A stretch of 64,000 bases of DNA from an uncultured Desulfobacterales bacterium (GTDB lineage Bacteria; Desulfobacterota; Desulfobacteria; Desulfobacterales; Desulfobacteraceae), in NCBI GenBank assembly GCA_964565415.1, contig CAZMEX010000005.1, positions 21,442 to 85,441 of the forward strand, in the 5' to 3' direction. Position 1 is the stretch's first letter, and each line of letters begins with the position of its first letter. A program made the position numbers and the translations under genes. Under the pieces are notes generated by a model, which saw only the letters and a program-made list of their open reading frames with translations, made no database searches and was not told where the DNA came from. Of the stretch, positions 4,252 through 28,736 are shown piece after piece.

Positions 4252-4280
4252 TTGACTTTCTGTTTTTATTTGGTTAGGAA
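4252..4280 (+). promoter_or_regulatory. Candidate sigma70 promoter for riboswitch 1 (TTGACT-17 nt-TAGGAA)
   Basis: TTGACT at 4252-4257, 17-nt spacer, TAGGAA at 4275-4280. Same CTTGACTTT -35 context as the promoter at 12378. Confidence 0.4.
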
Positions 4281-4287
4281 AGTAATC

Positions 4288-4455
4288 TGATTCAGGTGCT
4301 TTTTTAAGGCACAATAGGGAACCCGGTTTAATTCCGGGACGGACCCGCCGCTGTTATTGGGTACGAAAACCTAAACAATGCCACTGTCAGAACAATCTGA
4401 TGGGAAGGCTTAGGTGAGTAGAATGATCCAAAAGTCAGAAGACCTGCCTGGATTA
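4288..4455 (+). promoter_or_regulatory. Cobalamin (B12) riboswitch 1
   Basis: Conserved core AATAGGGAACCCGGTTTAATTCCGGGACGGACCCGCCGCTGT, then GCCACTG...TGGGAAGGC, then B12-box AGTCAGAAGACCTGCC. P1 pairing TTCAGG/CCTGGA. Confidence 0.9.
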
Positions 4456-4517
4456 TATATAAGTTTTCCTTCTGGATAAAGGAATTCTTAAAAGATCTTG
4501 AGGAAAGAAAAGGGATA

Positions 4518-4557
4518 CCCCTGATCGATATGTTTTATATCGGCCAGGGGTTTTTTT
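4518..4557 (+). terminator. Rho-independent terminator (riboswitch 1 expression platform)
   Basis: Stem CCCCTGATCGATA / TATCGGCCAGGGG followed by TTTTTTT. It lies between the aptamer and the receptor start codon. Confidence 0.75.
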
Positions 4558-4589
4558 ATTGGTTTACTAGAGAATAAGGAAGATACTTT

Positions 4590-6704
4590 ATGGAAAAAAG
4601 ATTTGTTTTAATTTTATTGTCAGTTTTACTGGTTGTTTCTAATGGTTTTGCCTTGGATAATGAGCCAAAACCTTTTGAAATGGATGAGGTGGTTGTCACT
4701 TCCACCAACAAGGCTAAAGCCTTTGATACACCTTCCAGCATTGCTATTATTACAGCAAAAGATCTGGAGGATTCCGGAGCCAAAAATATTATAGAAGTTT
4801 TGGAAAACATTCCGGGTATTATTAATAAAACATATAACAATGAAGGTATTGCCATTCGGGGCACTCAAAGCTCCATGGCAGGTGGACCTGTTATACTTAT
4901 TGATGGTGTACCCCAAAAAATTGGAGACACGCAATATGACTCTTTTGGTTTTATTCCTGTCTCCCAGGTTGAACGCATTGAGGTATTAAAATCCCCGGGG
5001 ATAGTTTATGGACCTGGCTCTGCCAGGGGTGTTATTAATATTATTACTAAAAAAGGAGAAAAAGAAAACTTTAGTGGTAATATCAAACTTTCCTATGGAT
5101 CATGGGACACAATTGACACCAATGCCACCATATCCGGCAATAAACACAAATTTGATTATTTGATTAATGCAGGAATTTTTAAAACAGACGGGTATGAAGA
5201 TGAAGGAGTGAATAAAACCTCCTCTTTAATAAAGTTTGGATATAAGCCAAATGATTATACCCGCATTGGATTGAGGGGCAATTTAATTTTAAATGATGCC
5301 GAAGTTGCCAGGGGTCGTGAAAAAAACCGATGGCACATAAAGCATTTTCGAAGAAAGAAGCAGTTTCCCAGAAGCGCAACAGACCCGCGACTTGTATGGT
5401 ATAATAAAAAAGATCACACCGAATCAGTGCTGGGTCTTGAATTTTCCCACGATAAAGATGCTCTTTTTCTCAACTCCAATGTTTCTTATACAAAATATGA
5501 AGCAAATTATAAAAGTCAGTATTCCATTAACTACAAACCAAAAACCGTATTCCATGAGGATGAAAACCAGAGCACCTATGCTTTTAACTTTTCCGGTGGC
5601 TACAACTTAAGCCTTGACAACTTCATCTATACGCCCTCTTTTGGTGTTAATATGGAACAGATTAATTTTGACCAGCAGAGAAACTATCCCTTTAACCCCA
5701 AAAAGAAAACAGGTAAATATATTTTTGATGTAAATGAGACAATGTATGGTCTATTCTGGGATAACGATTTTTTATTTAAAGAGAAGTATGGTTTAAAAAT
5801 TGGTGCGAGGATTGATCAAGTAAATGTAGAATTTGAAGATAAAGCTGCAACTGAAATTGATCAATCAGAAACTTTTATTGGATGGTCAATTGCCCCCTCT
5901 TACTACTTCACTACAGATGCAAACATCTATTTCCAAATAAGTAAAAACTTCTGGATGCCAACACCTGCATATTATGCCTGGGCAGCATCCCGTGGGAAAA
6001 AAGGCGGTATCACCATAAACACTGCTGACAGCCTCAAGCCCGAAGAATCCCTAACATATGAAATTGGTTATAAACATATGGTTAATAAAAATATACGATT
6101 TATTCTGACAGGTTTCTTCATTGATTATAAGGACAAATTTGCAAGTGTCTACCATAGCAATGCAGCCATGACCTGGGGTGGAATGAAAAATATAGGCTCG
6201 GCTGAAATGAAAGGTATTGAACTTGAAGCCGATGGACGACCATGCAATTTTTTTGGTTATCGACTCTCTGGAACATATCTTGATGCCAAGTGGAAAAGCG
6301 GTCAAATGAAAGTCTATGAAAGACCTGGCAACACAAAAGTACTTTGCGACCTTGATGGGTATCAAATCTATGGAATCCCAAAGTATACAGCCACAGCGGG
6401 TTTTGATTTTTATCCCATGGAAAAATTAAAAATCTCAGCAGATATCAACTATTTTGGTCCCCATTATGCAGATTACACCAACAAGGTAAAATACAGTGCA
6501 AAGACAACCTTTGATACTAAAGTTACCTATACAATCAATAACAGCTGGGAGGTATGGCTGTTGGGAAAAAATATTTTTGATCAAAACATTGAAAGAGTAA
6601 GCAATACAACTGCTCGAATCAATACTGCCACCGGAGCATATGCCAACACCTATTATGTTCAGGATGGAGCATATTTTGAAGCTGGATTGAATTATAGTTT
6701 TTAA
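4590..6704 (+). CDS. TonB-dependent outer-membrane receptor
   Basis: Signal peptide, TonB-box-like DEVVVTS, plug motif IEVLKSPGIVYGPGSARGVINIITKKG, C-terminal LNYSF. 704 aa. Confidence 0.9.
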   Translation: MEKRFVLILLSVLLVVSNGFALDNEPKPFEMDEVVVTSTNKAKAFDTPSSIAIITAKDLEDSGAKNIIEVLENIPGIINKTYNNEGIAIRGTQSSMAGGPVILIDGVPQKIGDTQYDSFGFIPVSQVERIEVLKSPGIVYGPGSARGVINIITKKGEKENFSGNIKLSYGSWDTIDTNATISGNKHKFDYLINAGIFKTDGYEDEGVNKTSSLIKFGYKPNDYTRIGLRGNLILNDAEVARGREKNRWHIKHFRRKKQFPRSATDPRLVWYNKKDHTESVLGLEFSHDKDALFLNSNVSYTKYEANYKSQYSINYKPKTVFHEDENQSTYAFNFSGGYNLSLDNFIYTPSFGVNMEQINFDQQRNYPFNPKKKTGKYIFDVNETMYGLFWDNDFLFKEKYGLKIGARIDQVNVEFEDKAATEIDQSETFIGWSIAPSYYFTTDANIYFQISKNFWMPTPAYYAWAASRGKKGGITINTADSLKPEESLTYEIGYKHMVNKNIRFILTGFFIDYKDKFASVYHSNAAMTWGGMKNIGSAEMKGIELEADGRPCNFFGYRLSGTYLDAKWKSGQMKVYERPGNTKVLCDLDGYQIYGIPKYTATAGFDFYPMEKLKISADINYFGPHYADYTNKVKYSAKTTFDTKVTYTINNSWEVWLLGKNIFDQNIERVSNTTARINTATGAYANTYYVQDGAYFEAGLNYSF

Positions 6705-6715
6705 AGCTGAAAAAG

Positions 6716-7462
6716 ATGCTGAAACAACTTTGGATTACTGGAATTTTTACCGGCTTTTTGATTTTTGGAATCAAGGCAGGGCTTGGCTTAAGCAGCTATT
6801 TATATAATAGGTCTGGGGAAAAAACTCAAAAACTTATTTTTCTGTTTTTCTGTTTTTTTGTATATCTTGCTCTCTTTTTCATGCTTTATTATGTGATTAA
6901 TAGCTTTAGCCTGCTTGATTATCTGGATCAATTTCTAAATTTGTTGAAATATGGCATGCTTATACATATACTTATTGCTGTCGGGCTTTTTTTCTGGGGA
7001 GCAAAGCTTTTATTGCAGACCCAGAAGGGCCCGACAAAATATGCTTCAAAATATGCGCTTATTCTTCTGCTGCCATGTCCTGTATGTGCCACAGTTATCT
7101 TATTGAATCTAACCCTTGCTTTTTCCATTTTTTCATTTTCCCCTGCATTGGTTACTCTGGTTTTGTTTTCCATATTTTCAACCATTATCCTTGTCTCTCT
7201 GGGGCTTGTATTTCCTTTCCGCCATAAAATCCTGTCGGACAACTCCTTTTTAGGAGTATCCATGACTCTTGTTTCTCTCTATTTCCTTTTTACTATTATT
7301 ATTGCTCCAATATACCCTAAAATAAAAGCAAGCTATTTTATGGCTCTTTCAAATAACCCTTTTACCAATATAGATATGTTTCATACAATCCTTCTCCTTG
7401 TAGTTGTCGTGGTGTTAGCCGGATATGGATTTATTAAAATTTATTTTTTGCAAAGGCAGTGA
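6716..7462 (+). CDS. Polytopic membrane protein, DUF2162-like predicted transporter
   Basis: About 7 hydrophobic segments, with an intramembrane LLLPCPVCATVILL motif. The family assignment comes from remembered gene context (DUF2162 / MotA-ExbB / DUF2149 / CobN clusters). Confidence 0.55.
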   Translation: MLKQLWITGIFTGFLIFGIKAGLGLSSYLYNRSGEKTQKLIFLFFCFFVYLALFFMLYYVINSFSLLDYLDQFLNLLKYGMLIHILIAVGLFFWGAKLLLQTQKGPTKYASKYALILLLPCPVCATVILLNLTLAFSIFSFSPALVTLVLFSIFSTIILVSLGLVFPFRHKILSDNSFLGVSMTLVSLYFLFTIIIAPIYPKIKASYFMALSNNPFTNIDMFHTILLLVVVVVLAGYGFIKIYFLQRQ

Positions 7463-7466
7463 ACCA

Positions 7467-8096
7467 ATGAACATTTTTCCAATTTTTCAAACAATACTTT
7501 ATACCATCTCAACAGCTCTTCTTTATCCTGTTGTTCTTTTATTAATTGGACTCAGCATCTGGATTGTCATATATACAGGTGGGTTTATAGCAGAGTTTGT
7601 GCAACGTAAAAAATTTATCTCCACTGAAAACCTTGCAGATTCACTTGAACAAATCAGCAGCAAAATAGATCTTCCCCTATCAATAAGAAACTGCCTCCCT
7701 CGGCATATCATTGAATTTTCTGAAAATCTTAAGGTCATAATCAGTGCAAATAAATCCTTTAAAAATGAAAAAATTGAAAACCTTTTGCAACAGAGTGAAT
7801 CCTTTCTGGAAAAAGAGTTAAACAAAATAAAAATGATTGTGAGAGTCGGACCCAGTATTGGCCTTATGGGAACTTTGATCCCCATGGGTACAGGTCTGGC
7901 AGGATTAACCCAAGGAGATATGACACAACTTTCATCAAGCCTTATCCTTGCGTTTACCACCACAGTAGTGGGTATTGCCCTGGGAGTTACAGCATATTTT
8001 TTTTCCATGGTTAAGCAGACATGGCTTAATTGGGATTATAGGTGTCTTGCACTTATCACAGAAGCCATGACAAAAAACCCAATGACAAAAGAGTAA
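7467..8096 (+). CDS. MotA/TolQ/ExbB-family proton channel protein
   Basis: VGPSIGLMGTLIPMGTGLAGL and LAFTTTVVGIALGV match the ExbB/TolQ C-terminal channel motifs. I chose the ATG at 7467 (MNIFPIF), just after the upstream stop at 7462, instead of the overlapping 7425 start. Confidence 0.8.
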   Translation: MNIFPIFQTILYTISTALLYPVVLLLIGLSIWIVIYTGGFIAEFVQRKKFISTENLADSLEQISSKIDLPLSIRNCLPRHIIEFSENLKVIISANKSFKNEKIENLLQQSESFLEKELNKIKMIVRVGPSIGLMGTLIPMGTGLAGLTQGDMTQLSSSLILAFTTTVVGIALGVTAYFFSMVKQTWLNWDYRCLALITEAMTKNPMTKE

Positions 8097-8101
8097 ACTA
8101 T

Positions 8102-8461
8102 ATGAAATATCTTACAAGACAAAAACAATCCAAGTTGCAAAATGTTGCAATGGAAGATCCCATGAATGGAGTTGCCAATCTTTTTGATGTTGCTCTGGTG
8201 TTTATTGTAGCTCTGCTGCTATCGCTGATGTCTGCCTACCAGATCCTTGATTTTTTCAATCCTGAAAGCGAGATTACAATTATGAAAAAAACCGATGAAC
8301 AGTGGCGGATAATAACAAAAAAGGGCAGAAAGATAAAAGTAAAAAAGGTTACGAACCGCAAAGTTGGTGGGAAAGAAGGGCTTAAGCTTGGCACTGCTTA
8401 TCAGCTTCAAAACGGGCAGGTGATTTATATTCCGGAAGAGGAGATAAATGAGATTGAATAG
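8102..8461 (+). CDS. DUF2149-like, ExbD/TolR-like single-pass membrane protein
   Basis: The ATG at 8102 follows the ExbB-like stop. One N-terminal TM segment, NLFDVALVFIVALLLSLM, has an Asp at the helix start as in ExbD/TolR. About 70 aa of soluble tail. Confidence 0.5.
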   Translation: MKYLTRQKQSKLQNVAMEDPMNGVANLFDVALVFIVALLLSLMSAYQILDFFNPESEITIMKKTDEQWRIITKKGRKIKVKKVTNRKVGGKEGLKLGTAYQLQNGQVIYIPEEEINEIE

Positions 8462-11400
8462 ACTCTTTTCCATCTTTATTTTCTTCTTGGTTATATTTGC
8501 CCTGGAAATTCCATCACTATTGCAGGCAGGTATTCAGAAAAAAGAAGTTCTCATGATAATTGGTGCCGGAGACTCCCTCGGTGTTGCCAGGGTTTTTAAG
8601 GAGCTTAAAAAAAACAAACTATCAAAACAATATTCATTCACCTTTATTACAGACTATGAAGTGAGAAGTAATAAAGCTGATGGCAGCAAAATAGACAAAG
8701 CTGACATAATTATTGCTGATTTTATGAAAAGAGAGTTTGATGCATTTATTGCTGAAAACAATGTAAAACAGAATGCTGCCATATATAGCCTTCGCTGTGG
8801 CTATCTTGCTGAAAAAACTAAAAAAAAGGGGTTAAAGGTTAATATTGAGACAGAGCAATATTTTTCTCCTTCAACCCATGAAAACATTAAAAATCTACTT
8901 TTTCTAACCATTGCAAATTCTGGCTGCGACCTGGAGTATAAGAGACCATTCAAACTACCAGAAGCTGGAATTTTTCACCCTGAAGCTGAAACAGTTTTTT
9001 CATCCTTTGATACATATTTAAGCTGGTATAAAAAAAGGGTTGGTTTCAACAAGACAGGCTTCTGGGTCGGAGTTTCAACCTTTTCCACCTCTGCCAGCAG
9101 CTTGCAATATCCCAATGCAGGTAAGATTGAACAATTTTTGATCTTAGCCCTTGAAAAGCAAGGCATTAATATTTTACCAATATTTGGAAGACCTCCATAC
9201 CATGACTCATTAAAAAAATTTTTTTTAGATGACCACCAAAACCCAAGAATTGATGCTTTGGTTGGATTTTCTTTCCGTTTTTTACGCGGATTCCCGGTTA
9301 AAACAAGGCTTATTCTAAAAACAATAAATGCACCCATCTTTATGCCTTTGGAAGCCCATTCAATTACCATTAAACAGTGGAAAAAATCATGCACTGGAAT
9401 ATCTCCCATCAGAACTGCCTGGCAAGTATGTATTCCAGAACAGAATGGAGCAATTGAACCTACTATTGTTGGTGGTAAAGCTCCTGCAAGACTCAAAGGC
9501 ATGACCAGTATCATATATGAAAAACGCCCCCTTCCAGATAATATTGATTTTTTAATCAAAAGGATTAAAGCTTTTCATAAACTTAGAGTCACACCCAACA
9601 AAGATAAAAAAGTTGCTCTTTTTTATTGGAACCACCCTCCGGGCAAACAGGGTGTTGGTGCAAGTTATATGAACTGTTTCAGCTCCATTGCCCATATTCT
9701 GAAAAAATTAAAAGCCCAGGGATATATTGTTGATATCAATGACATCTCAAAGGATAAAATAAAAAAACGAATAATGCAGAGCGGACGAAATATCGGCTCC
9801 TGGGCACCAGGGGAGCTGCAAGGGCTGATGGCAAGCAAAGATGTTGTCCAGATTCCAGTCTCAAAATATAAAAAATGGTTTAAAGAGCTTCCCCCTAGCT
9901 TTCAAAAAGCTGTTGAGGAACAATGGGGCAAGGTTGAAGAGTCAAATATAATGATAAAATCTTCCAAAATTATTATTCCATTGGTAGATCTTGGCAATGT
10001 GATTCTTTTGCCCCAACCATCCAGGGGATTTGGTGAAGACCCTGCAAAACTGTACCACGATCCAAAGGTTTTCCCCCATCACCAATACATTGCCTTTTAC
10101 CTCTGGCTGAAAAAAGAATTTAATGTTAATGCAATAATATCCCTTGGCAAACATGGTACCCATGAGTGGCTGCCTGGCAAGCAGGTGGGCTTATCCCTCA
10201 ACTGCCCCCCTGAAATCTTAATTCAGGATATTCCCAATATTTACCCATATATTGTAGATAACATCGGTGAAGGTATCCAGGCAAAAAGGCGGGGGCGCGG
10301 CATAATTATTGACCATCTTATCCCACCTTTAAAAAAAGGCGGGATTTATATGGAATATAGAGAACTTACAGCGAAAATTGATTCCTATCATACTGCCCTT
10401 GTAACAAACCCCAAACTTGCAGATGAAAAATTGAAAACTGTCCGCACCCTTATTTTAAAACTTGGTATTGATAAAGATCTTGGTTTAAGTGTGATTGATC
10501 ATGAATCTGTTGAAGAGGTTGAACACTACATTCTGGAGTTGCAGGAAAGGTTGATCCCCTATGGTAATCACACGTTTGGTATCTCACCTGCAGGTGAGTC
10601 ACTTGTCCACCTCACCAATGCAGTTTGTGATAAAAGCCCAGAAATTGACAAAAAAGAGGTTAAAACAAAAATAGAGGTTTGCGGTGAAAAGGAAATCTTC
10701 TCCCTCATAAAAGCTTTAAATGGTGAATTTATTGCACCGGGTGAGGGTAATGACCCTGTGAGAAATCCCGATGCAATTCCCACGGGAAATAATTTTTATG
10801 GGTTTAATATTGATAAAGTTCCTTCCAGAGAGGCATTTGTCATGGGTAAAAACCTTGCTGAAAAAATGATTCAGGAGTACAAACAAAAACACAATCATTT
10901 TCCTGACAAACTTGGAATTATTCTCTGGAGCACAGAATTACAGCGCAATGAAGGTGCAGGTATTGCTGCAATATTTCATCTTATGGGAGTTGAACCAATT
11001 TGGGACAGAAAAGAGCAGGTAACAGGTGTAAAAGCTATTCCCGGTACCCTTCTTAACCGACCCAGAATTGATGTATTAATTCAAATGTCTGGTCTGTTTC
11101 GGGACAGTTATGCTAAATTAATTACACTTATGGATGAAGCTGTTAAAATAGCAGGTGCTTTAAAAGATGTTGAAAACTTTATTGCCATAAATAATAAAAA
11201 AATTGAAAGTACTCTTATCTCCAAAGGATATTCTAAAGAGAAAGCGCGCCAATTAAGCAAAGCAAGAATATTTGGACCAATGCCTGGTGCGTACTCCCAT
11301 GCTCTGCAGGAGTTAATTCCCAACAGTGCTGTATGGGAAACCCAAGATGAAATAGCAGATGTATTTATACACCACTCATCCTTTGCCTATGGAAAATCTT

Positions 11401-12371
11401 TCTGGGGCAGGCCTTTAAAGAGTGCATACAAGGAAAATCTAAAAGATGTGAAAATAACAATGCACACACGATCTTCCAATCTTTACTATATGCTGGATAA
11501 TGATGACATGTTTGCTTTTTTGGGAGGCTTGTCCCTTGCAGTAAAAAGTGTTGCCGGTAAACAGCCTGAAGCCATTGTTGCAAATATGCAGGATGGCAAA
11601 ACCGTAACATTGGATAGTTTATCTAAATCAATTGGTAAAGCAATGCGAAGCCGCTATCTTAACCCGGAATGGATTAAAGGAATGCAAAAAGAGGAATACT
11701 CTGGTGCAAAAGAGATGGATCAATTTGTTGAACATCTGTGGGGGTTTCAGGTAACAACTCCCTATGCAGTGGATAAAAGCCTCTGGCAGGAGATCCACGA
11801 TGTCTATGTAAAAGATAAATACAAACTTGATATGAAAAAATTTTTTGATGAAAATAACCCCTGGGCATTGCAATCAATCACAGCAAGAATGCTTGAGGCA
11901 GACCGGAAAAAATATTGGGATGCACCGGAAAAAATGAAAAAAAGCCTTGCGAAAACCTATGCACTCAGTATGATTGAAAAAGGGGTTGCCTGTTGTGAGC
12001 ACACCTGTAACAATCCCATGTTACAGCAATTTGTCACCAATATTATCTCCCTGTATGGACTAATGTCACAACAACAATTGGAACTGTTTAAAATGACTCT
12101 AGCCCAGGCAACATCAATGAGCCAAAAGGAGAGTGAAGCCAAAATAAAAAAAATGCAGGAGGGTTTAACAAAAACAATTAAAGAGATAAAAAAAGATGAA
12201 GAGATAAATACAAAAACCAAAGGCAAGGCAATAGAAGGTTTTGAGTTGGTCGATGAAAAGCAGAATGAGACAAAAGTTACTTCATCAGGTTCCTCCTGGG
12301 TAATCATACTAATTATTTGTGCTGTCCTTATGCTTTTAGTTGCTGGCTGGAAACAAAAAATAACAGCCTGA
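8448..12371 (+). CDS. cobN: CobN/ChlH-family (class I chelatase large subunit) homologue with N-terminal signal peptide and C-terminal TM anchor
   Basis: CobN motifs HGTHEWLPGK, IPNIYPYIVDNIGEGIQAKRRG, DHLIPP, NPDAIPTGNNFYGFN, PRIDVLIQMSGLFRD. N-terminus MRLNRLFSIFIFFLVIFALEIPSLLQAG. C-terminus SSWVIILIICAVLMLLVAGWKQK. Confidence 0.88.
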   Translation: MRLNRLFSIFIFFLVIFALEIPSLLQAGIQKKEVLMIIGAGDSLGVARVFKELKKNKLSKQYSFTFITDYEVRSNKADGSKIDKADIIIADFMKREFDAFIAENNVKQNAAIYSLRCGYLAEKTKKKGLKVNIETEQYFSPSTHENIKNLLFLTIANSGCDLEYKRPFKLPEAGIFHPEAETVFSSFDTYLSWYKKRVGFNKTGFWVGVSTFSTSASSLQYPNAGKIEQFLILALEKQGINILPIFGRPPYHDSLKKFFLDDHQNPRIDALVGFSFRFLRGFPVKTRLILKTINAPIFMPLEAHSITIKQWKKSCTGISPIRTAWQVCIPEQNGAIEPTIVGGKAPARLKGMTSIIYEKRPLPDNIDFLIKRIKAFHKLRVTPNKDKKVALFYWNHPPGKQGVGASYMNCFSSIAHILKKLKAQGYIVDINDISKDKIKKRIMQSGRNIGSWAPGELQGLMASKDVVQIPVSKYKKWFKELPPSFQKAVEEQWGKVEESNIMIKSSKIIIPLVDLGNVILLPQPSRGFGEDPAKLYHDPKVFPHHQYIAFYLWLKKEFNVNAIISLGKHGTHEWLPGKQVGLSLNCPPEILIQDIPNIYPYIVDNIGEGIQAKRRGRGIIIDHLIPPLKKGGIYMEYRELTAKIDSYHTALVTNPKLADEKLKTVRTLILKLGIDKDLGLSVIDHESVEEVEHYILELQERLIPYGNHTFGISPAGESLVHLTNAVCDKSPEIDKKEVKTKIEVCGEKEIFSLIKALNGEFIAPGEGNDPVRNPDAIPTGNNFYGFNIDKVPSREAFVMGKNLAEKMIQEYKQKHNHFPDKLGIILWSTELQRNEGAGIAAIFHLMGVEPIWDRKEQVTGVKAIPGTLLNRPRIDVLIQMSGLFRDSYAKLITLMDEAVKIAGALKDVENFIAINNKKIESTLISKGYSKEKARQLSKARIFGPMPGAYSHALQELIPNSAVWETQDEIADVFIHHSSFAYGKSFWGRPLKSAYKENLKDVKITMHTRSSNLYYMLDNDDMFAFLGGLSLAVKSVAGKQPEAIVANMQDGKTVTLDSLSKSIGKAMRSRYLNPEWIKGMQKEEYSGAKEMDQFVEHLWGFQVTTPYAVDKSLWQEIHDVYVKDKYKLDMKKFFDENNPWALQSITARMLEADRKKYWDAPEKMKKSLAKTYALSMIEKGVACCEHTCNNPMLQQFVTNIISLYGLMSQQQLELFKMTLAQATSMSQKESEAKIKKMQEGLTKTIKEIKKDEEINTKTKGKAIEGFELVDEKQNETKVTSSGSSWVIILIICAVLMLLVAGWKQKITA

Positions 12372-12377
12372 TATTGC

Positions 12378-12406
12378 TTGACTTTTTGCTTTTGTTTTTA
12401 TAGATT
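12378..12406 (+). promoter_or_regulatory. Candidate sigma70 promoter for riboswitch 2 (TTGACT-17 nt-TAGATT)
   Basis: TTGACT at 12378-12383, 17-nt spacer, TAGATT at 12401-12406, immediately upstream of the aptamer. Confidence 0.45.
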
Positions 12407-12407
12407 G

Positions 12408-12578
12408 AAAGTTCAGGTGTTGCATTGAGCAGATAATAGGGAATCTCGTTAAAATCGAGAGCGGACCCGCCGCTGTAATCGGGGATGAAAACTTTAACAA
12501 TCACTGCAAAGTTAATAAAAGACTTGTGGGAAGATAAAGTAATAATTTGATCCGTAAGCCAGAAAACCTGCCTGAAAA
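12408..12578 (+). promoter_or_regulatory. Cobalamin (B12) riboswitch 2
   Basis: AATAGGGAATCTCGTTAAAATCGAGAGCGGACCCGCCGCTGTAATC, then TCACTG...TGGGAAGAT, then B12-box AAGCCAGAAAACCTGCC. P1 pairing TTCAGG/CCTGAA. Confidence 0.9.
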
Positions 12579-12637
12579 TAATTTCAGTAAGCTGACGAGG
12601 AAATAAGCTAGGGCTAAAAATATGGAAAAATACGGTT

Positions 12638-12669
12638 CCCATATCGACCATATCGATATGGGTTTTTTT
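12638..12669 (+). terminator. Rho-independent terminator (riboswitch 2 expression platform)
   Basis: Stem CCCATATCGA, loop CCATA, stem TCGATATGGG, then TTTTTTT. It lies upstream of the cbiK start at 12712. Confidence 0.75.
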
Positions 12670-12711
12670 ATGCCCATTTAAATTTAATTAATTTAAAATA
12701 TAGGAGTCAAG

Positions 12712-13680
12712 ATGATCAGAAAACGTAATTTTTATTTTATTTTAGTACTATCTTTTTTATTGGTGGCATCCAGCAACTTATTTGCAAAAAGTGCTATAAT
12801 TTTGTCAAGTTTTGGCACAACAGAGCCGAAAGCTGTCTCTTCAATCTTGAATATTAAAGCCGAGATTGAAAAGGCTTTTCCTGGAACCAGAGTTGAACTG
12901 ACCTTTACTTCAAATATTATCAGATCAATCTGGCAAAAGAGAAGGCAAAATGCTGCTAAATGGAAAGCAATGGGAATTGCTCCTGAAGTCCTTAATATCA
13001 AAGGAATCCTCGAAACTTTTGGAAAACTTCAAAGTGCAGGATTCAAAGATATAGTGGTGCAACCGACTCATATGTTTCACATGGAACAATACTCTGATCT
13101 GGTATCATATGTTGATGGTATTGCATCCATTAAAACCATAAGAAAAAAGTGGATGCCCTTTAATAACATTGTTATTGGCAGACCTGCCCTGGGGACATGT
13201 GGTGTAAAATATCCATACCATGATGATATGAAAAGAGTTGTTAAAATTTTCCATGCCGATGCTAAAGAAGCAGAGGAGGAAAAGTCAATTCTCGTATATA
13301 TGGGGCATGGAAATGAGGTGTGGTCCACCGGGATTTATGCAGAGCTGCAAAAAGAGATGAGGAAAGTTTATCCTGATATAATAACATTTATTGGAAGTGT
13401 TGAAGGGTACCCTTCCCTTGATGATATCAAAGCAGGGTTAAAACACATGCACCTGAAACAGAAAAATATTCTATTAAAACCTCTAATGATTGTTGCAGGC
13501 GACCATGCAAGAAATGATATGGCAGGAGATGGGGAAGATTCCTGGAAAACAAACTTTGAAAAAATTGGTTTTAAGGTTAATCCTGTATTAAAAGGGTTGG
13601 GATCCAATAATGAGTTTGTGCAAATATTCATTGACCACATTAAAGATGCTGCCCAGGAGGGTGGAATAAAATTAAAATAA
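12712..13680 (+). CDS. cbiK: Sirohydrochlorin cobaltochelatase CbiK with signal peptide (periplasmic CbiK(P)-like)
   Basis: SFGTT, YMGHG and PLMIVAGDHARNDMAGDGEDSWK closely match the CbiK signature. N-terminus MIRKRNFYFILVLSFLLVASSNLFAKSA looks like a Sec signal. Confidence 0.85.
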   Translation: MIRKRNFYFILVLSFLLVASSNLFAKSAIILSSFGTTEPKAVSSILNIKAEIEKAFPGTRVELTFTSNIIRSIWQKRRQNAAKWKAMGIAPEVLNIKGILETFGKLQSAGFKDIVVQPTHMFHMEQYSDLVSYVDGIASIKTIRKKWMPFNNIVIGRPALGTCGVKYPYHDDMKRVVKIFHADAKEAEEEKSILVYMGHGNEVWSTGIYAELQKEMRKVYPDIITFIGSVEGYPSLDDIKAGLKHMHLKQKNILLKPLMIVAGDHARNDMAGDGEDSWKTNFEKIGFKVNPVLKGLGSNNEFVQIFIDHIKDAAQEGGIKLK

Positions 13681-13692
13681 AGGACTGGGAGG

Positions 13693-14742
13693 TTGAATAG
13701 TAAAATTAAAGCCATAACAAAAAGGAGAACAGGGACTCTGGTGACTCTGTTCTCCTTTTTATTAACAGGGACAATATTATTATCATGTTCAATGGGATAT
13801 GTTAATATTGACTTTAGTGATATCTGTAAAATCATATACTCAGCCATCACTAACAATGCAGACATTGTATCTGATATCCCAAAAACCATCAGGGTGATTG
13901 TTATGGAGATACGGTTACCCCGTATTCTTACCTGTGCTGCTGTTGGTGGAGCGCTTGCCGTATCAGGTGCATTGTTTCAAGGTATTCTTTTAAATCCCCT
14001 TGCTGATCCTTATACTTTGGGAGTTTCTGCCGGGGCAGCTTTTGGTGCATGTATTGCGATTTTATTTAACCTCGGGGCTTTTTTTGTTTCAATTCCTTTA
14101 TTTGCTTTTATCGGAGCAATTAGTACACTGTTTCTTGTAATTTTTCTTTCCAGCGGATCCAACAAAAGCAGCTCTAACTTCTCCTCTAATAACCTTATTT
14201 TATCAGGCATTATTATTGCCGCAATTTTATCTGCCGGCATTAGTTTTTTAAAGTACCTTGCCGATGAACAGGTGTCGGTTATTATTTTCTGGCTCATGGG
14301 CAGTTTTGCTTCAAAAACCTGGATTGACGTTTTTGCAGTTTTAAGCTTTTTAATGATGGGTTTTTTAATATCAATTTTATATGCAAGGGATCTTAACCTC
14401 ATATCTCTTGGAGAAAAAGCAGCCTCCAGTCTTGGGGTTGATATTAAAAAGGTTGTCATAACCCTTCTTATTACAGGTTCTCTGCTTGCTGCAATCTCAG
14501 TTTCTGTCTCTGGCATAATTGGTTTTGTAGGGCTTCTTATTCCCCATATGGTAAGATCCATTACAGGTCCTGACAACTTAAAAGTTATCCCGCTTTCCAT
14601 GATTGCAGGAGCAGCTCTTCTTCTTGTTGCCGACACAATAACAAGGGCTGTCCTTGTTCATGAAATCCCCATTGGTGTTTTAACAGCGCTGATTGGCGGT
14701 CCTGTTTTTTGCTGGATATTTAAAAAAAGTAACCAAAAGTAA
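13693..14742 (+). CDS. FecCD/BtuC-family ABC transporter permease
   Basis: About 9-10 TM segments. Motifs LADPYTLGVSAGAAFGA and ALIGGPVF. TTG start. Confidence 0.85.
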   Translation: MNSKIKAITKRRTGTLVTLFSFLLTGTILLSCSMGYVNIDFSDICKIIYSAITNNADIVSDIPKTIRVIVMEIRLPRILTCAAVGGALAVSGALFQGILLNPLADPYTLGVSAGAAFGACIAILFNLGAFFVSIPLFAFIGAISTLFLVIFLSSGSNKSSSNFSSNNLILSGIIIAAILSAGISFLKYLADEQVSVIIFWLMGSFASKTWIDVFAVLSFLMMGFLISILYARDLNLISLGEKAASSLGVDIKKVVITLLITGSLLAAISVSVSGIIGFVGLLIPHMVRSITGPDNLKVIPLSMIAGAALLLVADTITRAVLVHEIPIGVLTALIGGPVFCWIFKKSNQK

Positions 14743-14751
14743 GGAACAGAT

Positions 14752-15543
14752 ATGAGAATCAAAGTTGAAAATCTTTCATTTGCCCATGATCTCAGCATCA
14801 CAATGCCAGGCAATACCATCAATAATTTCAATATTGAATTTGAACAAGGCAACTTCTACTCTTTACTTGGTCCCAACGGCAGTGGGAAAACAACCTTTCT
14901 TGATCTTTTAACTGGATATTTAAAGCCAGATTCTGGAAATGTTTTGTTTAATGATAACAATATTATCTCTTTTTCTAAAAATCAGCTTTCCAGAAAAATA
15001 GCCCTTGTTTCCCAGGAATACTCCATAAACTTTCCATATACTGTAAAAGAAATTGTTACCATGGGAAGACATCCTTACATGGGACGATTTCTTTCCCTGG
15101 ATAAAAAAGATAAAGATATAGTCAAACATATTGCTTCCATTACAGATATCAATGATTTAATGGAAAGGACTATTACCTGCCTAAGTGGAGGGGAAAAGCA
15201 ACGCTGTGTTTTTGCAAGAGCTTTATGCCAGCAAACCCCTGTACTTCTTTTAGATGAAGCTTTTTCCAATATGGATATTAACCACTCATTTAATTTGTTG
15301 AAGATTTTAAAAAATATGATTAGAGACAATAAAATTATAGTAATTTCAGTTTTCCATGATATAAATTTTGCATCCATATGGTCAGATAAAATGATTTTTT
15401 TAAAAAAAGGAGATATAATGGCATATGGAACGCCTAACGATGTAATGACCGAAGCAAATATAAAAAAAGTGTATGATATTAAAGCAAAAGTTGAACACAA
15501 TGCTTTTGCAAAGGCAAAACAAGTATATTTTAGTACAAATTAA
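14752..15543 (+). CDS. ABC transporter ATP-binding protein (BtuD/FecE-like)
   Basis: Walker A GPNGSGKTT, signature LSGGEKQR, Walker B LLLDEAFS. Confidence 0.9.
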   Translation: MRIKVENLSFAHDLSITMPGNTINNFNIEFEQGNFYSLLGPNGSGKTTFLDLLTGYLKPDSGNVLFNDNNIISFSKNQLSRKIALVSQEYSINFPYTVKEIVTMGRHPYMGRFLSLDKKDKDIVKHIASITDINDLMERTITCLSGGEKQRCVFARALCQQTPVLLLDEAFSNMDINHSFNLLKILKNMIRDNKIIVISVFHDINFASIWSDKMIFLKKGDIMAYGTPNDVMTEANIKKVYDIKAKVEHNAFAKAKQVYFSTN

Positions 15544-15554
15544 AATAAAATCAC

Positions 15555-16490
15555 ATGAATAATCTCATAAAGCATTTTAAAGTCTTAGTATGGCTGCTGA
15601 TATTTTCTCTTTTCAGCAGTGTATCTGTATTTGCCCATACAATTGTTGATAATGCAGGAAGAAAGGTTACATTTTCAAAACCTTTTCAAAAAATTATCTC
15701 TTTATATGGCGCACATACTGAAAACCTGTTTTATCTTGGAGCCGGAAGCCAGGTTATCGGTGTATCAGTCAATGATACATACCCAGCTTGTGTAAAAGAG
15801 AAAAAAAGCTTTTCCTTTCATGATGATGCAGAAAAATTTCTATCGGCTGCTCCAGACCTTATTATAATCCGCCCAATGATTGACAAAGGATATACAAAAT
15901 TATTCACTGCCCTTGAAAAATTTGGAATTGTTGTGGTATCACTTCAGCCGGCAAACCCTGAACAAATGTACAGTTATTGGTTAAAACTTGGTTTACTGAC
16001 AGGCAAAAACAGACAAGCTCAAAACATGGTAAAAGAGTTTCAGGATCAAATTAGTTTCTTAGGCTTGCTTACCTGCAATGTTAAAAACAAGAAGAGGGTC
16101 TATTTTGAAGCGATCCATTCAAGAATGAAAACTTTTACCCAAAGGTCCATGCCGGGATTTGTTTTAAAAACCGCTGGCGGTATTAACATTGCAGTAGATG
16201 CAAAAGCTTCACGAAATACAAACATAGCACATTATGGTAAGGAAAAATTATTATCCCATGCATCTGAGATTGATATTTTCCTTGCACAACAAGGAGTAAT
16301 GAATAGTATAACTAAAGCAGTTATTAAAAACGAACCCGGGTTTGAAACCATCAAGGCAATTGCCAACAATAAAGTGTATTTAATAGATGAGCAGATAATT
16401 TCAAGACCGGGATTCAGGCTTTTACAAGGAATAAAAACAATTGGTAAACTATTATATCCAAATATATATAATAACAATATAATTAATTAG
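15555..16490 (+). CDS. Periplasmic substrate-binding protein (BtuF/FecB class)
   Basis: Signal peptide. Size and position after the permease/ATPase genes fit. PDLIIIRP and KVYLIDE motifs are typical of class III binding proteins. Confidence 0.75.
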   Translation: MNNLIKHFKVLVWLLIFSLFSSVSVFAHTIVDNAGRKVTFSKPFQKIISLYGAHTENLFYLGAGSQVIGVSVNDTYPACVKEKKSFSFHDDAEKFLSAAPDLIIIRPMIDKGYTKLFTALEKFGIVVVSLQPANPEQMYSYWLKLGLLTGKNRQAQNMVKEFQDQISFLGLLTCNVKNKKRVYFEAIHSRMKTFTQRSMPGFVLKTAGGINIAVDAKASRNTNIAHYGKEKLLSHASEIDIFLAQQGVMNSITKAVIKNEPGFETIKAIANNKVYLIDEQIISRPGFRLLQGIKTIGKLLYPNIYNNNIIN

Positions 16491-16518: not shown

Positions 16519-17226
16519 ATGAAAAAAAGCGGGAAACTGTTCGGAATTGGTGTTGGACCGGGTGATCCTGAACTTATCACGAAAAAAGCAATCAGAATTA
16601 TTAATGAGGCAGATGTGATTTTTACTGCAGCCTCCACAAAAAACAATTACAGCCTTGCCCTTGAAATTGCCGACCCGTATATTTCAGATAATGCTGACAT
16701 CCAAAATCTATCTTTTCCCATGATAAAGGACAAGCTGAAAAGTGCAAAAGCATGGAACTCCAATGCTGAAAAAATTTCTGCTGTTTTAAAGCAGGGCAAA
16801 AATGCAGCATTTATAACTCTTGGTGACCCTGTAACATACTCAACTTTTGGCTATATTTTAATGGCAATGGAAAAAGTGATGCCCAACGCTGACATTGAAA
16901 TTGTTCCTGGTATTACATCTTTTCATGCTGCCGCTGCAAGATGCAATCAAATACTGGTGGAGGCAGAAGAGACACTTGCCATAGCATCAGGTGCCTATGG
17001 AGGCAGCCACATCAGAGATATTGCTGAAAAAGTTGATAAAATTGCAATTGTTAAAGCATATAAGAATACAAAAGATTTAATAAAAGCTTTAAAAGAGACT
17101 GGATTTTATGAAAAGAGCGTTGCTGTATCAAAATGCGGAAGAGAAGGCGAAAACATCATTCAAGACATAGATGATCTTGAAACAAGGGAACCTGATTACT
17201 GGACATTGATTCTTGCAAGCAAATAA
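16519..17226 (+). CDS. cbiL: Cobalt-factor II / precorrin-2 C20-methyltransferase
   Basis: GKLFGIGVGPGDPELIT tetrapyrrole methylase N-terminus. 235 aa. cbi operon context. Confidence 0.85.
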   Translation: MKKSGKLFGIGVGPGDPELITKKAIRIINEADVIFTAASTKNNYSLALEIADPYISDNADIQNLSFPMIKDKLKSAKAWNSNAEKISAVLKQGKNAAFITLGDPVTYSTFGYILMAMEKVMPNADIEIVPGITSFHAAAARCNQILVEAEETLAIASGAYGGSHIRDIAEKVDKIAIVKAYKNTKDLIKALKETGFYEKSVAVSKCGREGENIIQDIDDLETREPDYWTLILASK

Positions 17227-17385
17227 CACTGAAACATTACCATGCAGATGTTTTACCATTTCAATATTTATAGCAACATTGATTACGGTTTTGCTTATGC
17301 AAGGAGCGAAGATTTCCGTAGGAAGGTCAATGTTTCAAGATCTTAAGTTAATAATAGTTGGATTAATCTATTTTATGGTGGCTGA

Positions 17386-18624
17386 ATGAAACCTGTAAAA
17401 ATTATTGGTATGGGACAAGCTTTACACGATATTACACCGGAACAAATGAAGATAATTAAAGATGCTGATTTACTGATCGGAGGCACAAAGCTGCTTGTAA
17501 ATTTTGATAATCTTAATGTACAAAAGATAGAAATTAAGAATAATTTGGCCTTAATTGTTAAAACAATTCAAGCTAAGATAGATTCAAACAAAATTGTGGT
17601 GCTGGCATCGGGAGACCCCCTCTTTTTCGGTATCGGGACATATCTTATAAAAAAAATCGGTAAAGAAAATGTTAGGATTTATCCAAATATTTCATCTGCT
17701 GCCAAAGCTTTTTCTAAAATAAATGAGTCATGGCATGATGCTAAACTTATCAGCCTCCATGGAAAAAGGTCAAAAAAATTTGATAACCTTACGGACCTTT
17801 TTGCAGATAAAACTAAGTTTGGGATATTAACTGATAAGAAAAAAGATCCTGTGTGGATTGCAAAAAAAATCGTTGCTAATAATATGACGGATTTTTCAAT
17901 GTGTGTATTGGAGGAGCTCGACACTAACAATGAAAAAATCCGATGGTTCCATGACCTTTCAAAAGTTGCAGAAAATCAATTTGCCCATCCAAATATTGTA
18001 ATTTTAAAAAGAGACCACTCTTCCACTGATTCCGCCAAAAACAGACAAATTTTCCCGGGAATGGCAGATGGATATTTCCTCCATGAAAAGGGACTTATTA
18101 CTAAAGCTGAAATTAGAAGTATTGCTATATCTAAGCTTAATTTTGTCAATGAAGATCATCTGTTCTGGGACCTTGGTTCAGGCTCCGGTTCCATTTCCAT
18201 AGAGGTTTCATCTATTCTCACCAAAGGTAAGATTTATGCAGTTGAAAAGAATCTTGATAGAATAAGTTTGATTAAAAAAAACATTCTCAAGTATAATGTT
18301 AAAAACATTAATGTGATCCATGCAAACCTCCCGGACAATTTTGATAAATTGCCTGTTCCAGATCGAATATTTATTGGAGGCGGGGGCAAAGACCTTGCTG
18401 AGATTACAGAGTGTGCTGTAGATAAACTTGCCTTAAACGGTGTTATTGTTGTAAACACAATTTTAATTCAAAACCTTGAGCCTGTTTTTAAAATACTGAA
18501 AAAGCAAAGGTTAAACCCCCAGGCAATTTCAGTACAAATCTCAAAATCTAAAGACATGCCCTTTGGCACAAGATTTGAAGCACTAAACCCTGTATGGATT
18601 ATTTATGGAAAAAAGGAATACTAA
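17386..18624 (+). CDS. cbiET: Fused CbiE-CbiT cobalt-precorrin-6B/7 methyltransferase-decarboxylase (CobL-type)
   Basis: N-terminal tetrapyrrole methylase domain (IGMGQ..., ASGDPLFFG). C-terminal class I SAM methyltransferase domain (WDLGSGSGSISIE). Confidence 0.85.
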   Translation: MKPVKIIGMGQALHDITPEQMKIIKDADLLIGGTKLLVNFDNLNVQKIEIKNNLALIVKTIQAKIDSNKIVVLASGDPLFFGIGTYLIKKIGKENVRIYPNISSAAKAFSKINESWHDAKLISLHGKRSKKFDNLTDLFADKTKFGILTDKKKDPVWIAKKIVANNMTDFSMCVLEELDTNNEKIRWFHDLSKVAENQFAHPNIVILKRDHSSTDSAKNRQIFPGMADGYFLHEKGLITKAEIRSIAISKLNFVNEDHLFWDLGSGSGSISIEVSSILTKGKIYAVEKNLDRISLIKKNILKYNVKNINVIHANLPDNFDKLPVPDRIFIGGGGKDLAEITECAVDKLALNGVIVVNTILIQNLEPVFKILKKQRLNPQAISVQISKSKDMPFGTRFEALNPVWIIYGKKEY

Positions 18625-18627
18625 CAA

Positions 18628-19410
18628 ATGCAAAGCAAATTTTATCCGGTATTATTTGTAGGTGCGGGTCCTGGGGACCCTGATCTCATAACTGTTAAAG
18701 GAATGAATGCACTAAAAGAGGCAGATATAATTATCTATGCCGGCTCTCTTGTTCCAAAAGAACTTCTTTCATGGGCAAAACCTGAAACCAAAACAATAAA
18801 TAGTGCTTCAATGCACTTAAATGAAATTATTGAAGAGATCAAATCTTCCTATTTTGCCCAAAAAAAAGTTGTAAGGCTTCATACTGGAGACCCTTCCCTT
18901 TACGGAGCAATTTTAGAGCAGTTTAGAGAGTTAAATAGAGACTCTATTAAATTTAAAACAATTCCCGGAGTTACTGCAGCGTTTGCTGCAGCTGCATCCA
19001 TGAATATGGAGTATACCCTGCCTGAAGTTACCCAGACATTAATCTTAACCAGAATCTCTGGCAGGACATCTGTCCCTGATTTAGAGGACTTAAACCTATT
19101 GTGCTCCCATAAAAGTTCCATTGTTATCTATTTGAGTATCAAGCATATTGAAAAAGTTGAAGAAATTGTGTGTAAGTCCTTTGGCGAAAAGAGCTTATGT
19201 GCAATAGCATATAAAGTTGGTTTTAAAGAGGAAAAAATTATATATTGTGAGGCAAACAATCTTACTGAGTCAGTAAAAAAAGAAAAAATTGCCAGCCAGG
19301 CAATAATCATTGCAGGCAAAGCAGTAGAGGCAAGTATGGCAGACAAAGATATACTCAAGTCAAAACTTTATGATATAAATTTCAGCCATGAATACAGAGA
19401 GAATAGATAA
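18628..19410 (+). CDS. cbiF: Cobalt-precorrin-4 C11-methyltransferase
   Basis: FVGAGPGDPDLITVKG, RLHTGDPSLYGA and IPGVTAAFAAAA motifs. Confidence 0.9.
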   Translation: MQSKFYPVLFVGAGPGDPDLITVKGMNALKEADIIIYAGSLVPKELLSWAKPETKTINSASMHLNEIIEEIKSSYFAQKKVVRLHTGDPSLYGAILEQFRELNRDSIKFKTIPGVTAAFAAAASMNMEYTLPEVTQTLILTRISGRTSVPDLEDLNLLCSHKSSIVIYLSIKHIEKVEEIVCKSFGEKSLCAIAYKVGFKEEKIIYCEANNLTESVKKEKIASQAIIIAGKAVEASMADKDILKSKLYDINFSHEYRENR

Positions 19411-21291: not shown

Positions 21292-21315
21292 AGATTAATA
21301 AGTTAACAAGAGAAG

Positions 21316-24424: not shown

Positions 24425-24543
24425 ACTTGCCCTCTTGAATATTGATAATGAAAGAACAAAATATTGGAGCTTTTATTATCTTACAATTATAGGATGATTG
24501 CTATTTTTTTGTCAAGAAAATTTAAACAATTTCACCTTCCACA

Positions 24544-25824: not shown

Positions 25825-25855
25825 TTTTGAATCCTTGGGCTTGTTTTGTGGTCTT

Positions 25856-26095: not shown

Positions 26096-26172
26096 CTTTG
26101 CCTCCTGGGAAATGATATTATTCTTATTTAAAATTTGCACAAGTCACTAATATATGTACGTTTTAGGCATTG

Positions 26173-27270: not shown

Positions 27271-27314
27271 TGAATCTTACCTTTTTGCTTTTTAATTGTG
27301 TATTTTATAACTAT

Positions 27315-28715: not shown

Positions 28716-28736
28716 AATTGCCTCCTGAACAGCTTC

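Follow-up and report, generated by a model that had tools for sequence, protein, structure and literature searches.

Here, we describe a riboswitch-headed gene cluster in a 64,000-nucleotide (nt) stretch of DNA from an uncultured Desulfobacterales bacterium (GenBank assembly GCA_964565415.1, contig CAZMEX010000005.1, positions 21,442 to 85,441 of the forward strand; hereafter the window, with position 1 as its first nt), in which a cobalamin aptamer is directly followed by genes for a TonB-dependent receptor, three inner-membrane proteins and an exported, membrane-anchored relative of CobN. Comparison with related sequences makes it very probable that the cluster serves cobalt or corrinoid acquisition rather than haem acquisition, and we propose, with a probability of roughly 40%, that it does so by extracting cobalt in the periplasm from imported cobalt tetrapyrroles, driven by the proton motive force (PMF). 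The cluster belongs to a kind already described by comparative genomics. Rocha et al. 2019 attribute to Rodionov 2003 the proposal of "BtuS," a class of CobN-like proteins associated with B12 (PMC6460266), Wagner et al. 2012 described a plasmid cluster of Trichlorobacter (Geobacter) lovleyi and left its role open (PMC3403914), and Mesle et al. 2023 reported Hmu-like operons that have a cobalamin riboswitch in front and no HmuY, for which they suggested a cobalamin-related role (PMC10100974). The name BtuS persists in annotation, e.g., as "CobN-like chelatase BtuS for metalloporphyrine salvage." In view of these three papers, the claim of an initial annotation of this DNA that the regulatory logic of such clusters was uncharacterised had to be given up.

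The leader of the cluster matches the cobalamin riboswitch aptamer RF00174 on the plus strand at 4277-4465, over the full model (model positions 1-189) and with 119.4 bits against a gathering score of 31.5 (E = 2.4e-29); a covariance model built in this analysis (R1) gives the same aptamer 173 bits. An intrinsic-terminator-like hairpin begins 52 nt past the aptamer end (4517-4551; 15 pairs, centroid fold of -20 kcal/mol, z = -3.05 versus shuffles) and runs into seven U residues (4552-4558), the two forming a candidate expression platform at 4517-4558 on the plus strand. Upstream, a promoter-like -35 hexamer, TTGACT, can be read from the sequence at 4252-4257 (plus strand), and a nearly identical -35 context, CTTGACTTT, recurs in the leader of a second riboswitch, at 12378; the -10 candidate TAGGAA, at about 4274-4279, is weak, and a consensus promoter scan made no call for the TTGACT/TAGGAA promoter at 4252. 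The initial annotation had placed a promoter, an aptamer and a terminator here: the aptamer passes the covariance search and the terminator stands, and of the promoter the -35 element is good and the -10 element weak. Together, the RF00174 match and the hairpin with its U tract point to control of the cluster by a B12 riboswitch, as had been suggested. No Fur-box site with three or fewer mismatches to the consensus was found anywhere in the 64-kb window.

The riboswitch is a recurrent companion of the cluster. A scan of one genome per species with the CobN-like protein alignment yielded 77 loci (these and further loci are cited below by L numbers), mostly from Desulfobacterota/Thermodesulfobacteriota with a few from Omnitrophota, Poribacteria, Elusimicrobiota, Verrucomicrobiota and Synergistaceae, the closest CobN-like relative being 75% identical (L013). 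All loci were surveyed with a covariance model made from 12 Rfam-confirmed aptamers, and neighbouring genes were identified by phmmer with the window proteins. A cobalamin riboswitch lies upstream of the CobN-like gene on the same strand in 43 of the 48 loci that have at least 7 kb of upstream sequence, so the association is not unique to this genome, the point on which the initial annotation had turned to gene neighbourhoods. Four of the five loci without such a riboswitch were searched again with filters off and nothing was found; two of the five lie within longer cbi operons, and one has no riboswitch; the exceptions include L054 and L063, described below. Elsewhere, two or three cobalamin riboswitches stand in a row upstream of the cluster (L080 4237-4703, L021 5108-5611, L071 5835-6405, L076 2500-3033, L012 3158-5754). 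The conservation extends to the inner-membrane genes, with the trio of DUF2162, ExbB-like and DUF2149 genes found alongside the CobN-like gene in 51 of the 59 loci with sufficient flank.

In the window, the five genes are co-directional on the plus strand, tightly packed and directly 3' of the riboswitch. The first encodes a TonB-dependent outer-membrane receptor with a signal peptide (4590-6704; Pfam Plug and TonB_dep_Rec_b-barrel), followed by a polytopic inner-membrane DUF2162 protein, a candidate metal permease (6716-7462; PF09930, 130 bits), a proton-channel protein of the MotA/ExbB/TolQ family (7467-8096; PF01618, 43.8 bits against a cut-off of 22.9), a DUF2149 protein (8102-8461; PF09919, 102 bits) and the exported, membrane-anchored CobN-like protein of BtuS type, of 1307 amino acids (aa; 8448-12371; PF02514 CobN-Mg_chel, 1031 bits). 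Pfam searches thus matched each of the four families that had been named for the genes after the receptor (DUF2162, MotA_ExbB, DUF2149 and CobN-Mg_chel). The longest open reading frames (ORFs) of the third and fourth genes start at 7425 and 8042, and alignments of 55-61 homologues (61 for the ExbB-like protein) place the conserved starts at about 7467 and at 8102; with these corrected starts the spacings are +11, +4, +5 and -14 nt, the DUF2149 gene beginning 5 nt past the ExbB-like gene, in keeping with the range of -14 to +12 nt reported before. The receptor is a generic TonB-dependent receptor by Pfam, with PDB sequence matches mainly over its N-terminal plug region, and scores far below the NCBIfam cut-offs for the B12 receptor (TIGR01779, 111.4 versus 599.7) and for the haem-receptor family (TIGR01785, 118.8 versus 316.85). 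Neither ChlI, ChlD, CobS nor CobT is encoded among 44 window ORFs scanned with Pfam, which took in every ORF of at least 230 aa not inside a longer one, and the reported lack of an AAA+ partner in the window is upheld.

The CobN-like protein begins with a signal-like sequence, MRLNR followed by LFSIFIFFLVIFAL...LLQA, and ends with a transmembrane segment at about residues 1284-1301 and the tail KQKITA. Among full-length CobN-like homologues, 72 of 76 have a signal-like N-terminus and 74 of 76 a C-terminal anchor. Hydropathy and the positive-inside rule predict a protein that is tethered to the inner membrane and mostly periplasmic, and the retention of both features among homologues speaks for the periplasmic location first assigned to it. 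Its best PDB sequence match is HmuS (9d26, 5.6e-153), ahead of CobN (9uk9, 4e-137) and ChlH. It reaches no NCBIfam equivalog cut-off, falling short of all nine CobN/BchH models (best 912 versus 1619). Residue H569, in SLGKHGTHEW, corresponds to the catalytic His538 of HmuS, and M93 aligns with the haem-ligating Met79; both are invariant in 17 aligned sequences. The acidic motif LDNDD at 1016-1020 is, by alignment, the counterpart of LDSDD in PDB CobN. A Cupriavidus "CobN" that had been taken as a comparator for true CobN was dropped, having a signal-like N-terminus and a C-terminal anchor; because this comparator is exported, the CobN-likeness of LDNDD is taken solely from the alignment with PDB CobN. 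The Cupriavidus protein is a 1363-aa CobN-matching ORF in an unannotated stretch of replicon p352-1 of Cupriavidus sp. EM10 (L083), and exported CobN-like proteins therefore also occur in Betaproteobacteria. We also observed a Cys/His-rich segment, ACCEHTCNNP, at residues 1181-1190 of the window protein, which is almost fully conserved in the 17 aligned sequences (A-C-C-x-H-T-C-N-N-P being invariant) and reads ACCDHTCNNP in the T. lovleyi protein; the HmuS, Runella and Cupriavidus homologues have at most a weaker C-x4-C in its place, and HmuS of B. finegoldii has none. Within the periplasmic domain, this segment might bind a metal or form a disulfide.

The nearest characterised protein, HmuS, is a haem dechelatase (Nath et al. 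2025), and the same authors list the features that define its family: a Met-rich insertion in domain IV, the haem ligands Met79 and His254 where head and neck meet, the site LSLDHxxEFMGG, completeness of the hmuYRSTUV operon, HmuY included, and an identity of 50% or more to HmuS of B. theta; His538, in an HFG(T/A)HG motif, is conserved across the superfamily (PMC12583661). As comparators we used a B. theta-like HmuS rebuilt across a frameshift and the intact HmuS of B. finegoldii. The window protein shares His538 with HmuS, to which it is 28% identical, and lacks most of the defining features: it has 8 residues and no Met where B. theta HmuS has 136 residues including 19 Met, Phe276 occupies the position of His254 so that the Met79/His254 pair is incomplete, LSLDHxxEFMGG (His1209, Glu1212) becomes LDNDDMFAFLGG with D1020 and A1023, and no HmuY gene lies between riboswitch and receptor. 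CobN, for its part, is cytoplasmic and works with CobS/CobT, as ChlH does with ChlI/ChlD, and the window protein shows neither property. Because the HmuS features are mostly absent and the NCBIfam cut-offs are missed, the protein is, judged on its sequence, neither a strict HmuS nor a cytoplasmic CobN. It has the marks of the BtuS type instead, namely a CobN-Mg_chel domain that matches no CobN/BchH equivalog, predicted export and anchoring, a B12 riboswitch, a TonB receptor as neighbour and no AAA+ partner.

As an aside on the comparators, hmuS of the B. thetaiotaomicron-like locus L078 is frameshifted at an A-rich run (about 9960-10000) into products of 908 and 556 aa, and the C-terminal product of ~556 aa recurs in dozens of independent metagenome assemblies. 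The published view is that of an assembly error, but a product seen so often hints at a genuine slippery or phase-variable site, or else at sequencing error of a systematic kind.

An ordinary Hmu-type system that takes iron from haem, with a riboswitch that is incidental or non-functional, has to be weighed at this point. The likeness to hmuYRSTUV noted in the initial annotation is real: the Bacteroidota operon also has a receptor, a CobN-like protein, a polytopic membrane protein, a MotA/ExbB protein and DUF2149, HmuS has the same membrane topology and is the top PDB sequence match, and His538 and the Met79 equivalent are in place. The Bacteroidota operon differs, however, in having HmuY, in its gene order and in being regulated by iron and not by B12, its HmuT is not detectably a DUF2162 protein in Bacteroides, and no cobalamin riboswitch was found at true hmu loci. 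A haem system would leave unexplained that the riboswitch is kept in nearly all assessable related loci, that the window lacks HmuY and any Fur-box-like site, that the surroundings are those of cobalamin biosynthesis, and that the CobN-like protein departs from HmuS in overall identity, in the Met-rich insertion and at His254 (Phe), His1209 (Asp) and Glu1212 (Ala). We consider this explanation very improbable.

Closer parallels are found among clusters of the BtuS kind. On plasmid pSZ77/pGLOV01 of T. lovleyi SZ, tandem cobalamin riboswitches precede a TonB receptor, DUF2162, MotA/ExbB, DUF2149 and CobN-like protein in the order of the window, the CobN-like protein has an N-terminal signal, a C-terminal anchor, LDNDD and the Cys/His-rich motif, and the cluster is flanked by cobalamin biosynthesis genes as in the window; it differs in an identity of 37-38% and in the canonical ExbB-ExbD-TonB set and second receptor that follow it. 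The BtuS1 and BtuS2 proteins of Bacteroides fragilis, predicted by Rocha et al. 2019 to be exported and membrane-anchored (PMC6460266), share the CobN-Mg_chel domain and the lack of an AAA+ partner, and Hmu-like operons of BtuS1 type have a cobalamin riboswitch in front (PMC10100974). They belong, however, to another phylum, and their reported phenotypes concern haem iron and appear in the double mutant only. CobNST and ChlHID are members of the same superfamily, and the window protein shares the CobN-type acidic motif LD(S/N)DD and also the motif HG(T)HEWLPG; in contrast to it they are cytoplasmic and depend on AAA+ ATPases, partners that the window lacks, and the NCBIfam cut-offs built for them are missed by a wide margin.

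The preference for a corrinoid or cobalt substrate over haem, voiced in the initial annotation on the strength of one riboswitch, is reinforced by comparison, through the riboswitch (43 of 48 loci) and through two kinds of neighbour. (i) Exported BtuF-CbiZ fusions adjoin the CobN-like gene or are fused with it in 37 of the 77 loci (33 plus 4 truncated cases), and in 31 of the 48 assessable loci of a subclade with 40-54% identity. These proteins, of ~680 aa, join a signal peptide to a binding domain of BtuF type and an adenosylcobinamide amidohydrolase domain (CbiZ), and their gene immediately precedes the CobN-like gene, in most cases no more than a few nt away or overlapping it by a few (e.g., L058 7919-9982, L066 7866-9929, L023 7944-10001). 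In a Synergistaceae metagenome-assembled genome (L077, JAISQE010000032.1) a single 1968-aa ORF (7889-13792) unites BtuF-like, CbiZ and CobN-like parts behind a signal peptide contributed by the BtuF end; as a predicted triple fusion it connects the CobN-like enzyme with the trimming of corrinoids in the manner of a Rosetta stone. The literature that we searched contains no description of an exported CbiZ. (ii) CbiK without a signal peptide directly follows the CobN-like gene in ten loci, and at L054 genes for CbiM, CbiQ and an ATP-binding cassette (ABC) ATPase, an energy-coupling factor cobalt importer (5563-8155), lie directly upstream of DUF2162/ExbB-like/DUF2149/CobN-like genes in the same direction, with no riboswitch within the flank of this locus; L063 (5534-8165) has the same ORF layout, of which only the ATPase was identified.

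Seven neighbourhoods (L006, L014, L028, L033, L034, L035 and L038) hold two paralogous CobN-like genes each. At L006 each paralogue has its own riboswitch and one alone is paired with BtuF-CbiZ, which suggests two subtypes with different substrates.

A further set of relatives stands in a nickel context. In Runella slithyformis (plasmid pRUNSL01; L082 4683-12717) and in a 63%-identical metagenome locus (L087 4278-12044), the module lies between hypA-hypB-hypF and hypC-hypD-hypE beside a NiFe hydrogenase, in the order receptor, permease, MotA/ExbB, DUF2149, CobN-like, which is that of the window cluster. The Runella module differs from the latter in this setting, in an identity of 32% and in its polytopic protein: the place of DUF2162 is taken by a permease in which HAFEADH represents the HX4DH motif known from nickel/cobalt permeases. 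At L084 another relative lies beside two COG0523 (cobW-family) genes. No riboswitch was found at the Runella, metagenome hyp or cobW-neighbour loci. The placement and permease of the hyp-embedded module suggest a nickel version of the system.

The three inner-membrane proteins supply the rest of the argument. Inside a hydrophobic stretch, DUF2162 carries a PCPVC motif (residues 120-124) that is at least 90% conserved in 55 homologues, and a low-confidence single-sequence AlphaFold2 model (predicted local distance difference test, pLDDT, 53) predicts 7-8 helices. The ExbB-like protein is not a TolQ equivalog (23.8 versus 221 in NCBIfam). DUF2149 is modelled with one N-terminal transmembrane helix and a small all-beta periplasmic domain (AlphaFold2, pLDDT 75.6), and its D29, in the motif NLFDV, is nearly invariant in 42 sequences. 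The label "ExbD-like" that it first received fits its architecture, i.e., the single helix, the conserved Asp and the channel gene next to it, but fails for homology of sequence and fold: hhalign gives a probability of 0.06% against canonical ExbD, a PDB profile search returned nothing relevant, and Foldseek found no PDB match to the model at E ≤0.001. DUF2149 is nevertheless the likely partner of the ExbB-like channel. Canonical ExbB/ExbD genes occur within 10 kb in eleven loci, with TonB too in six (L080, T. lovleyi pSZ77, 12693-16126; L006, L044, L048, L057, L060, L066, L067, L070, L072 and L077), either beside the cluster, several kb off or on the opposite strand. Because these loci have a canonical set at hand, the ExbB-like/DUF2149 pair is unlikely to be a mere receptor energiser and probably has a job of its own.

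From these features we infer what the substrate is, which way the reaction runs, what DUF2162 does and how energy is coupled, as follows. When adenosylcobalamin is scarce, the riboswitch would allow readthrough of the terminator, and the TonB-dependent receptor would bring a cobalt tetrapyrrole, most likely a corrinoid, into the periplasm. There, the tethered CobN-like protein would bind the tetrapyrrole in its chelatase cavity and free Co(II), a reversal of the CobN reaction by analogy with the release of Fe(II) from haem by HmuS. The Co(II) would cross the inner membrane via DUF2162 and its intramembrane PCPVC site, and would supply the de novo anaerobic pathway encoded next door. The MotA/ExbB-like protein and DUF2149 would form a proton-driven stator that replaces the ATP-dependent energy supply of ChlI/ChlD or CobS/CobT, and that acts on the anchor of the CobN-like protein and/or on DUF2162 and not on the receptor. 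The opposite direction, with the CobN-like protein adding cobalt to a scavenged corrinoid that is metal-free or only partly assembled, would agree with the CobN-type active-site motif, and the stator could presumably provide the energy for chelation. Metal-free corrinoids are, however, rare in nature, and there would be no purpose in having cobalt importers and CbiK as neighbours. As the iron and nickel relatives also point to metal release and import (PMC12583661; the hyp loci), a forward periplasmic chelatase is the most improbable explanation of all those we weighed.

Extraction of cobalt, as set out above, has to be held against a number of observations, which we gather here as counting against it. 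We know of no enzyme that pulls cobalt from a corrin, and the Co-corrin is kinetically very inert. NCBIfam and PDB sequence searches did not place the receptor in the B12, haem or siderophore class, DUF2162 has no detectable homology to known metal transporters, to HmuT of Bacteroides or to the Runella permease (the latter two by profile comparison), and the stator role is given to a protein, DUF2149, that shows no homology to ExbD by hhalign, PDB profile and Foldseek. The BtuF-CbiZ fusion is found in none of the 15 assessable loci of the subclade to which the window belongs (at least 58% identity); there, it is the riboswitch and homology that tie the cluster to corrinoids. When BtuS1 and BtuS2 were lost in B. 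fragilis, the dechelatase activity of extracts was not abolished but rose (PMC6460266). Finally, the operon next to the cluster encodes a BtuCDF-like importer, which fits the uptake of intact corrinoids equally well.

That operon is headed by a second cobalamin riboswitch on the plus strand (12398-12589; RF00174, 109.3 bits), which starts 27 nt past the stop codon of the CobN-like gene, was overlooked in the initial annotation and has its own terminator hairpin with seven U residues (12638-12669, plus strand). Its first gene (12712-13680, plus strand) encodes a CbiK-family protein (Pfam CbiK, 244 bits) with a likewise overlooked signal peptide (MIRKRNFYFILVLSFLLVASSNLFA, followed by K), the top PDB matches of which are the haem-binding FetB (9b86) and a putative chelatase of Desulfovibrio vulgaris (2xvx). 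Like the periplasmic CbiK of D. vulgaris and FetB, it is an exported CbiK-fold protein adjoining an Fe/B12-type ABC importer; unlike them, it sits under a cobalamin riboswitch and leads a cbi operon. The BtuCDF-like ABC importer follows at 13693-16490 (plus strand) with a FecCD permease, an ATPase and a periplasmic binding protein (Pfam FecCD, ABC_tran, Peripla_BP_2), and then, at 16519-23297 on the same strand, anaerobic cobalamin biosynthesis genes recognised by Pfam: three TP_methylase-family genes (candidate CbiL, CbiF and CbiH), a CbiET-like fusion of TP_methylase and methyltransferase, CbiG, CobO and CobQ/CbiP. Genes for CbiD, CbiA and CbiC (Pfam) are found on the minus strand at 26173-29330, where, within 23348-29330, response-regulator/PAS/HisKA and citrate synthase genes part them from the main cbi operon. 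The earlier statement that the organism clearly uses the CbiK route is sound for the anaerobic route (CbiG, CbiD, CbiL, CbiC and others) but not for its basis in this CbiK, which is no guide to the cytoplasmic chelatase because it is exported; nor did the window show a CbiK or CbiX of cytoplasmic type.

Elsewhere, a His-rich run such as GHGH comes right after the signal peptide in exported homologues of CbiK (L005 6405, L010 617, L071 8553, L074 6637, L035 17863 and L052 404), and in four of these six loci they lie between the riboswitch and the remaining cluster. They may be periplasmic metal-binding proteins.

The main rival to cobalt extraction is salvage of the intact corrinoid, in which the receptor is a B12 receptor, the CobN-like protein binds corrinoids in the periplasm and hands them on, the macrocycle is imported by the BtuCDF-like transporter or by a stator-driven DUF2162, and the exported CbiZ of sister clusters trims cobamides to cobyric acid. 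TonB receptors under riboswitch control are, as a rule, receptors for B12, a BtuCDF-like operon with a second riboswitch lies directly downstream, and the alignment of M93 with Met79 of HmuS suggests that a tetrapyrrole site is kept in the head domain. Bacteroides, moreover, are not known as de novo corrin makers. B. fragilis has a riboswitch-linked BtuS1 (PMC10100974), and the BtuF-CbiZ fusions of sister clusters would yield a salvage intermediate (for the role of CbiZ, see PMC3541065). Salvage gives no reason, however, for the conservation of the catalytic His and of the acidic chelatase motif, for cytoplasmic CbiK or CbiMQO genes as co-transcribed neighbours, or for the versions in nickel and iron contexts in which the metal is the evident cargo, and DUF2162 is small for a corrinoid pore. 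We regard salvage as a serious, if minority, possibility.

Cobalt uptake might, alternatively, involve no tetrapyrrole, with the receptor importing Co(II) or a small cobalt chelate and the CobN-like protein, together with exported CbiK where there is one, acting as metal-binding chaperones in the periplasm that hand Co(II) over to DUF2162. Cobalt transporters are often under the control of B12 riboswitches, and TonB receptors linked to such riboswitches have been reported with a predicted specificity for cobalt (PMC7689651); the PCPVC motif of DUF2162, the CbiMQO and CbiK neighbours, the HX4DH permease of the nickel-context version and the COG0523 neighbours in L084 are all in line with such a route. 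A chelatase of ~1300 aa with a conserved tetrapyrrole cavity would nevertheless be an odd metal chaperone, the BtuF-CbiZ fusions imply that corrinoids are handled in the periplasm of the sister clade, and the sole characterised relative, HmuS, acts on a metallo-tetrapyrrole (PMC12583661). This route we hold to be unlikely. Returning to the extraction of metal from tetrapyrroles, the most economical reading of the relatives is a metal-acquisition module whose metal is set by its regulation and its permease, with iron in Hmu (proven), nickel at the hyp loci (by context) and cobalt under the B12 riboswitch.

Sulfidic habitats offer little cobalt, and in microbial communities B12 is a traded good. 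The cluster bears on where B12-making anaerobes obtain their cobalt, and on whether corrinoids are dismantled for their metal. Since HmuS was shown in 2025 to strip iron from haem, its B12-regulated relatives are obvious candidates for the cobalt equivalent, and they are carried by cultured strains such as T. lovleyi SZ, Desulfobacter curvatus, Desulfospira joergensenii, Desulfogranum japonicum and Desulfonema magnum; M93, H569 and D1019/D1020 of the CobN-like protein, C121/C124 of DUF2162 and D29 of DUF2149 are offered as residues for mutation. More generally, and as a rather doubtful extension, the module may represent a general type of PMF-powered periplasmic extractor of metals from tetrapyrroles, composed of a TonB receptor, an exported class I chelatase working in reverse, a stator of MotA/ExbB and DUF2149 that stands in for the AAA+ motor, and an exchangeable metal permease in the inner membrane, with versions for iron, cobalt and nickel. 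The cobalt version would dismantle foreign corrinoids, CbiZ trimming the side chain and the CobN-like protein removing the cobalt for de novo B12 synthesis. If true, we would know of no earlier case of a corrin being demetallated in biology or of a chelatase being coupled to the proton gradient, and a stator that powers a chelatase would represent a new use of MotA/ExbB-type motors.

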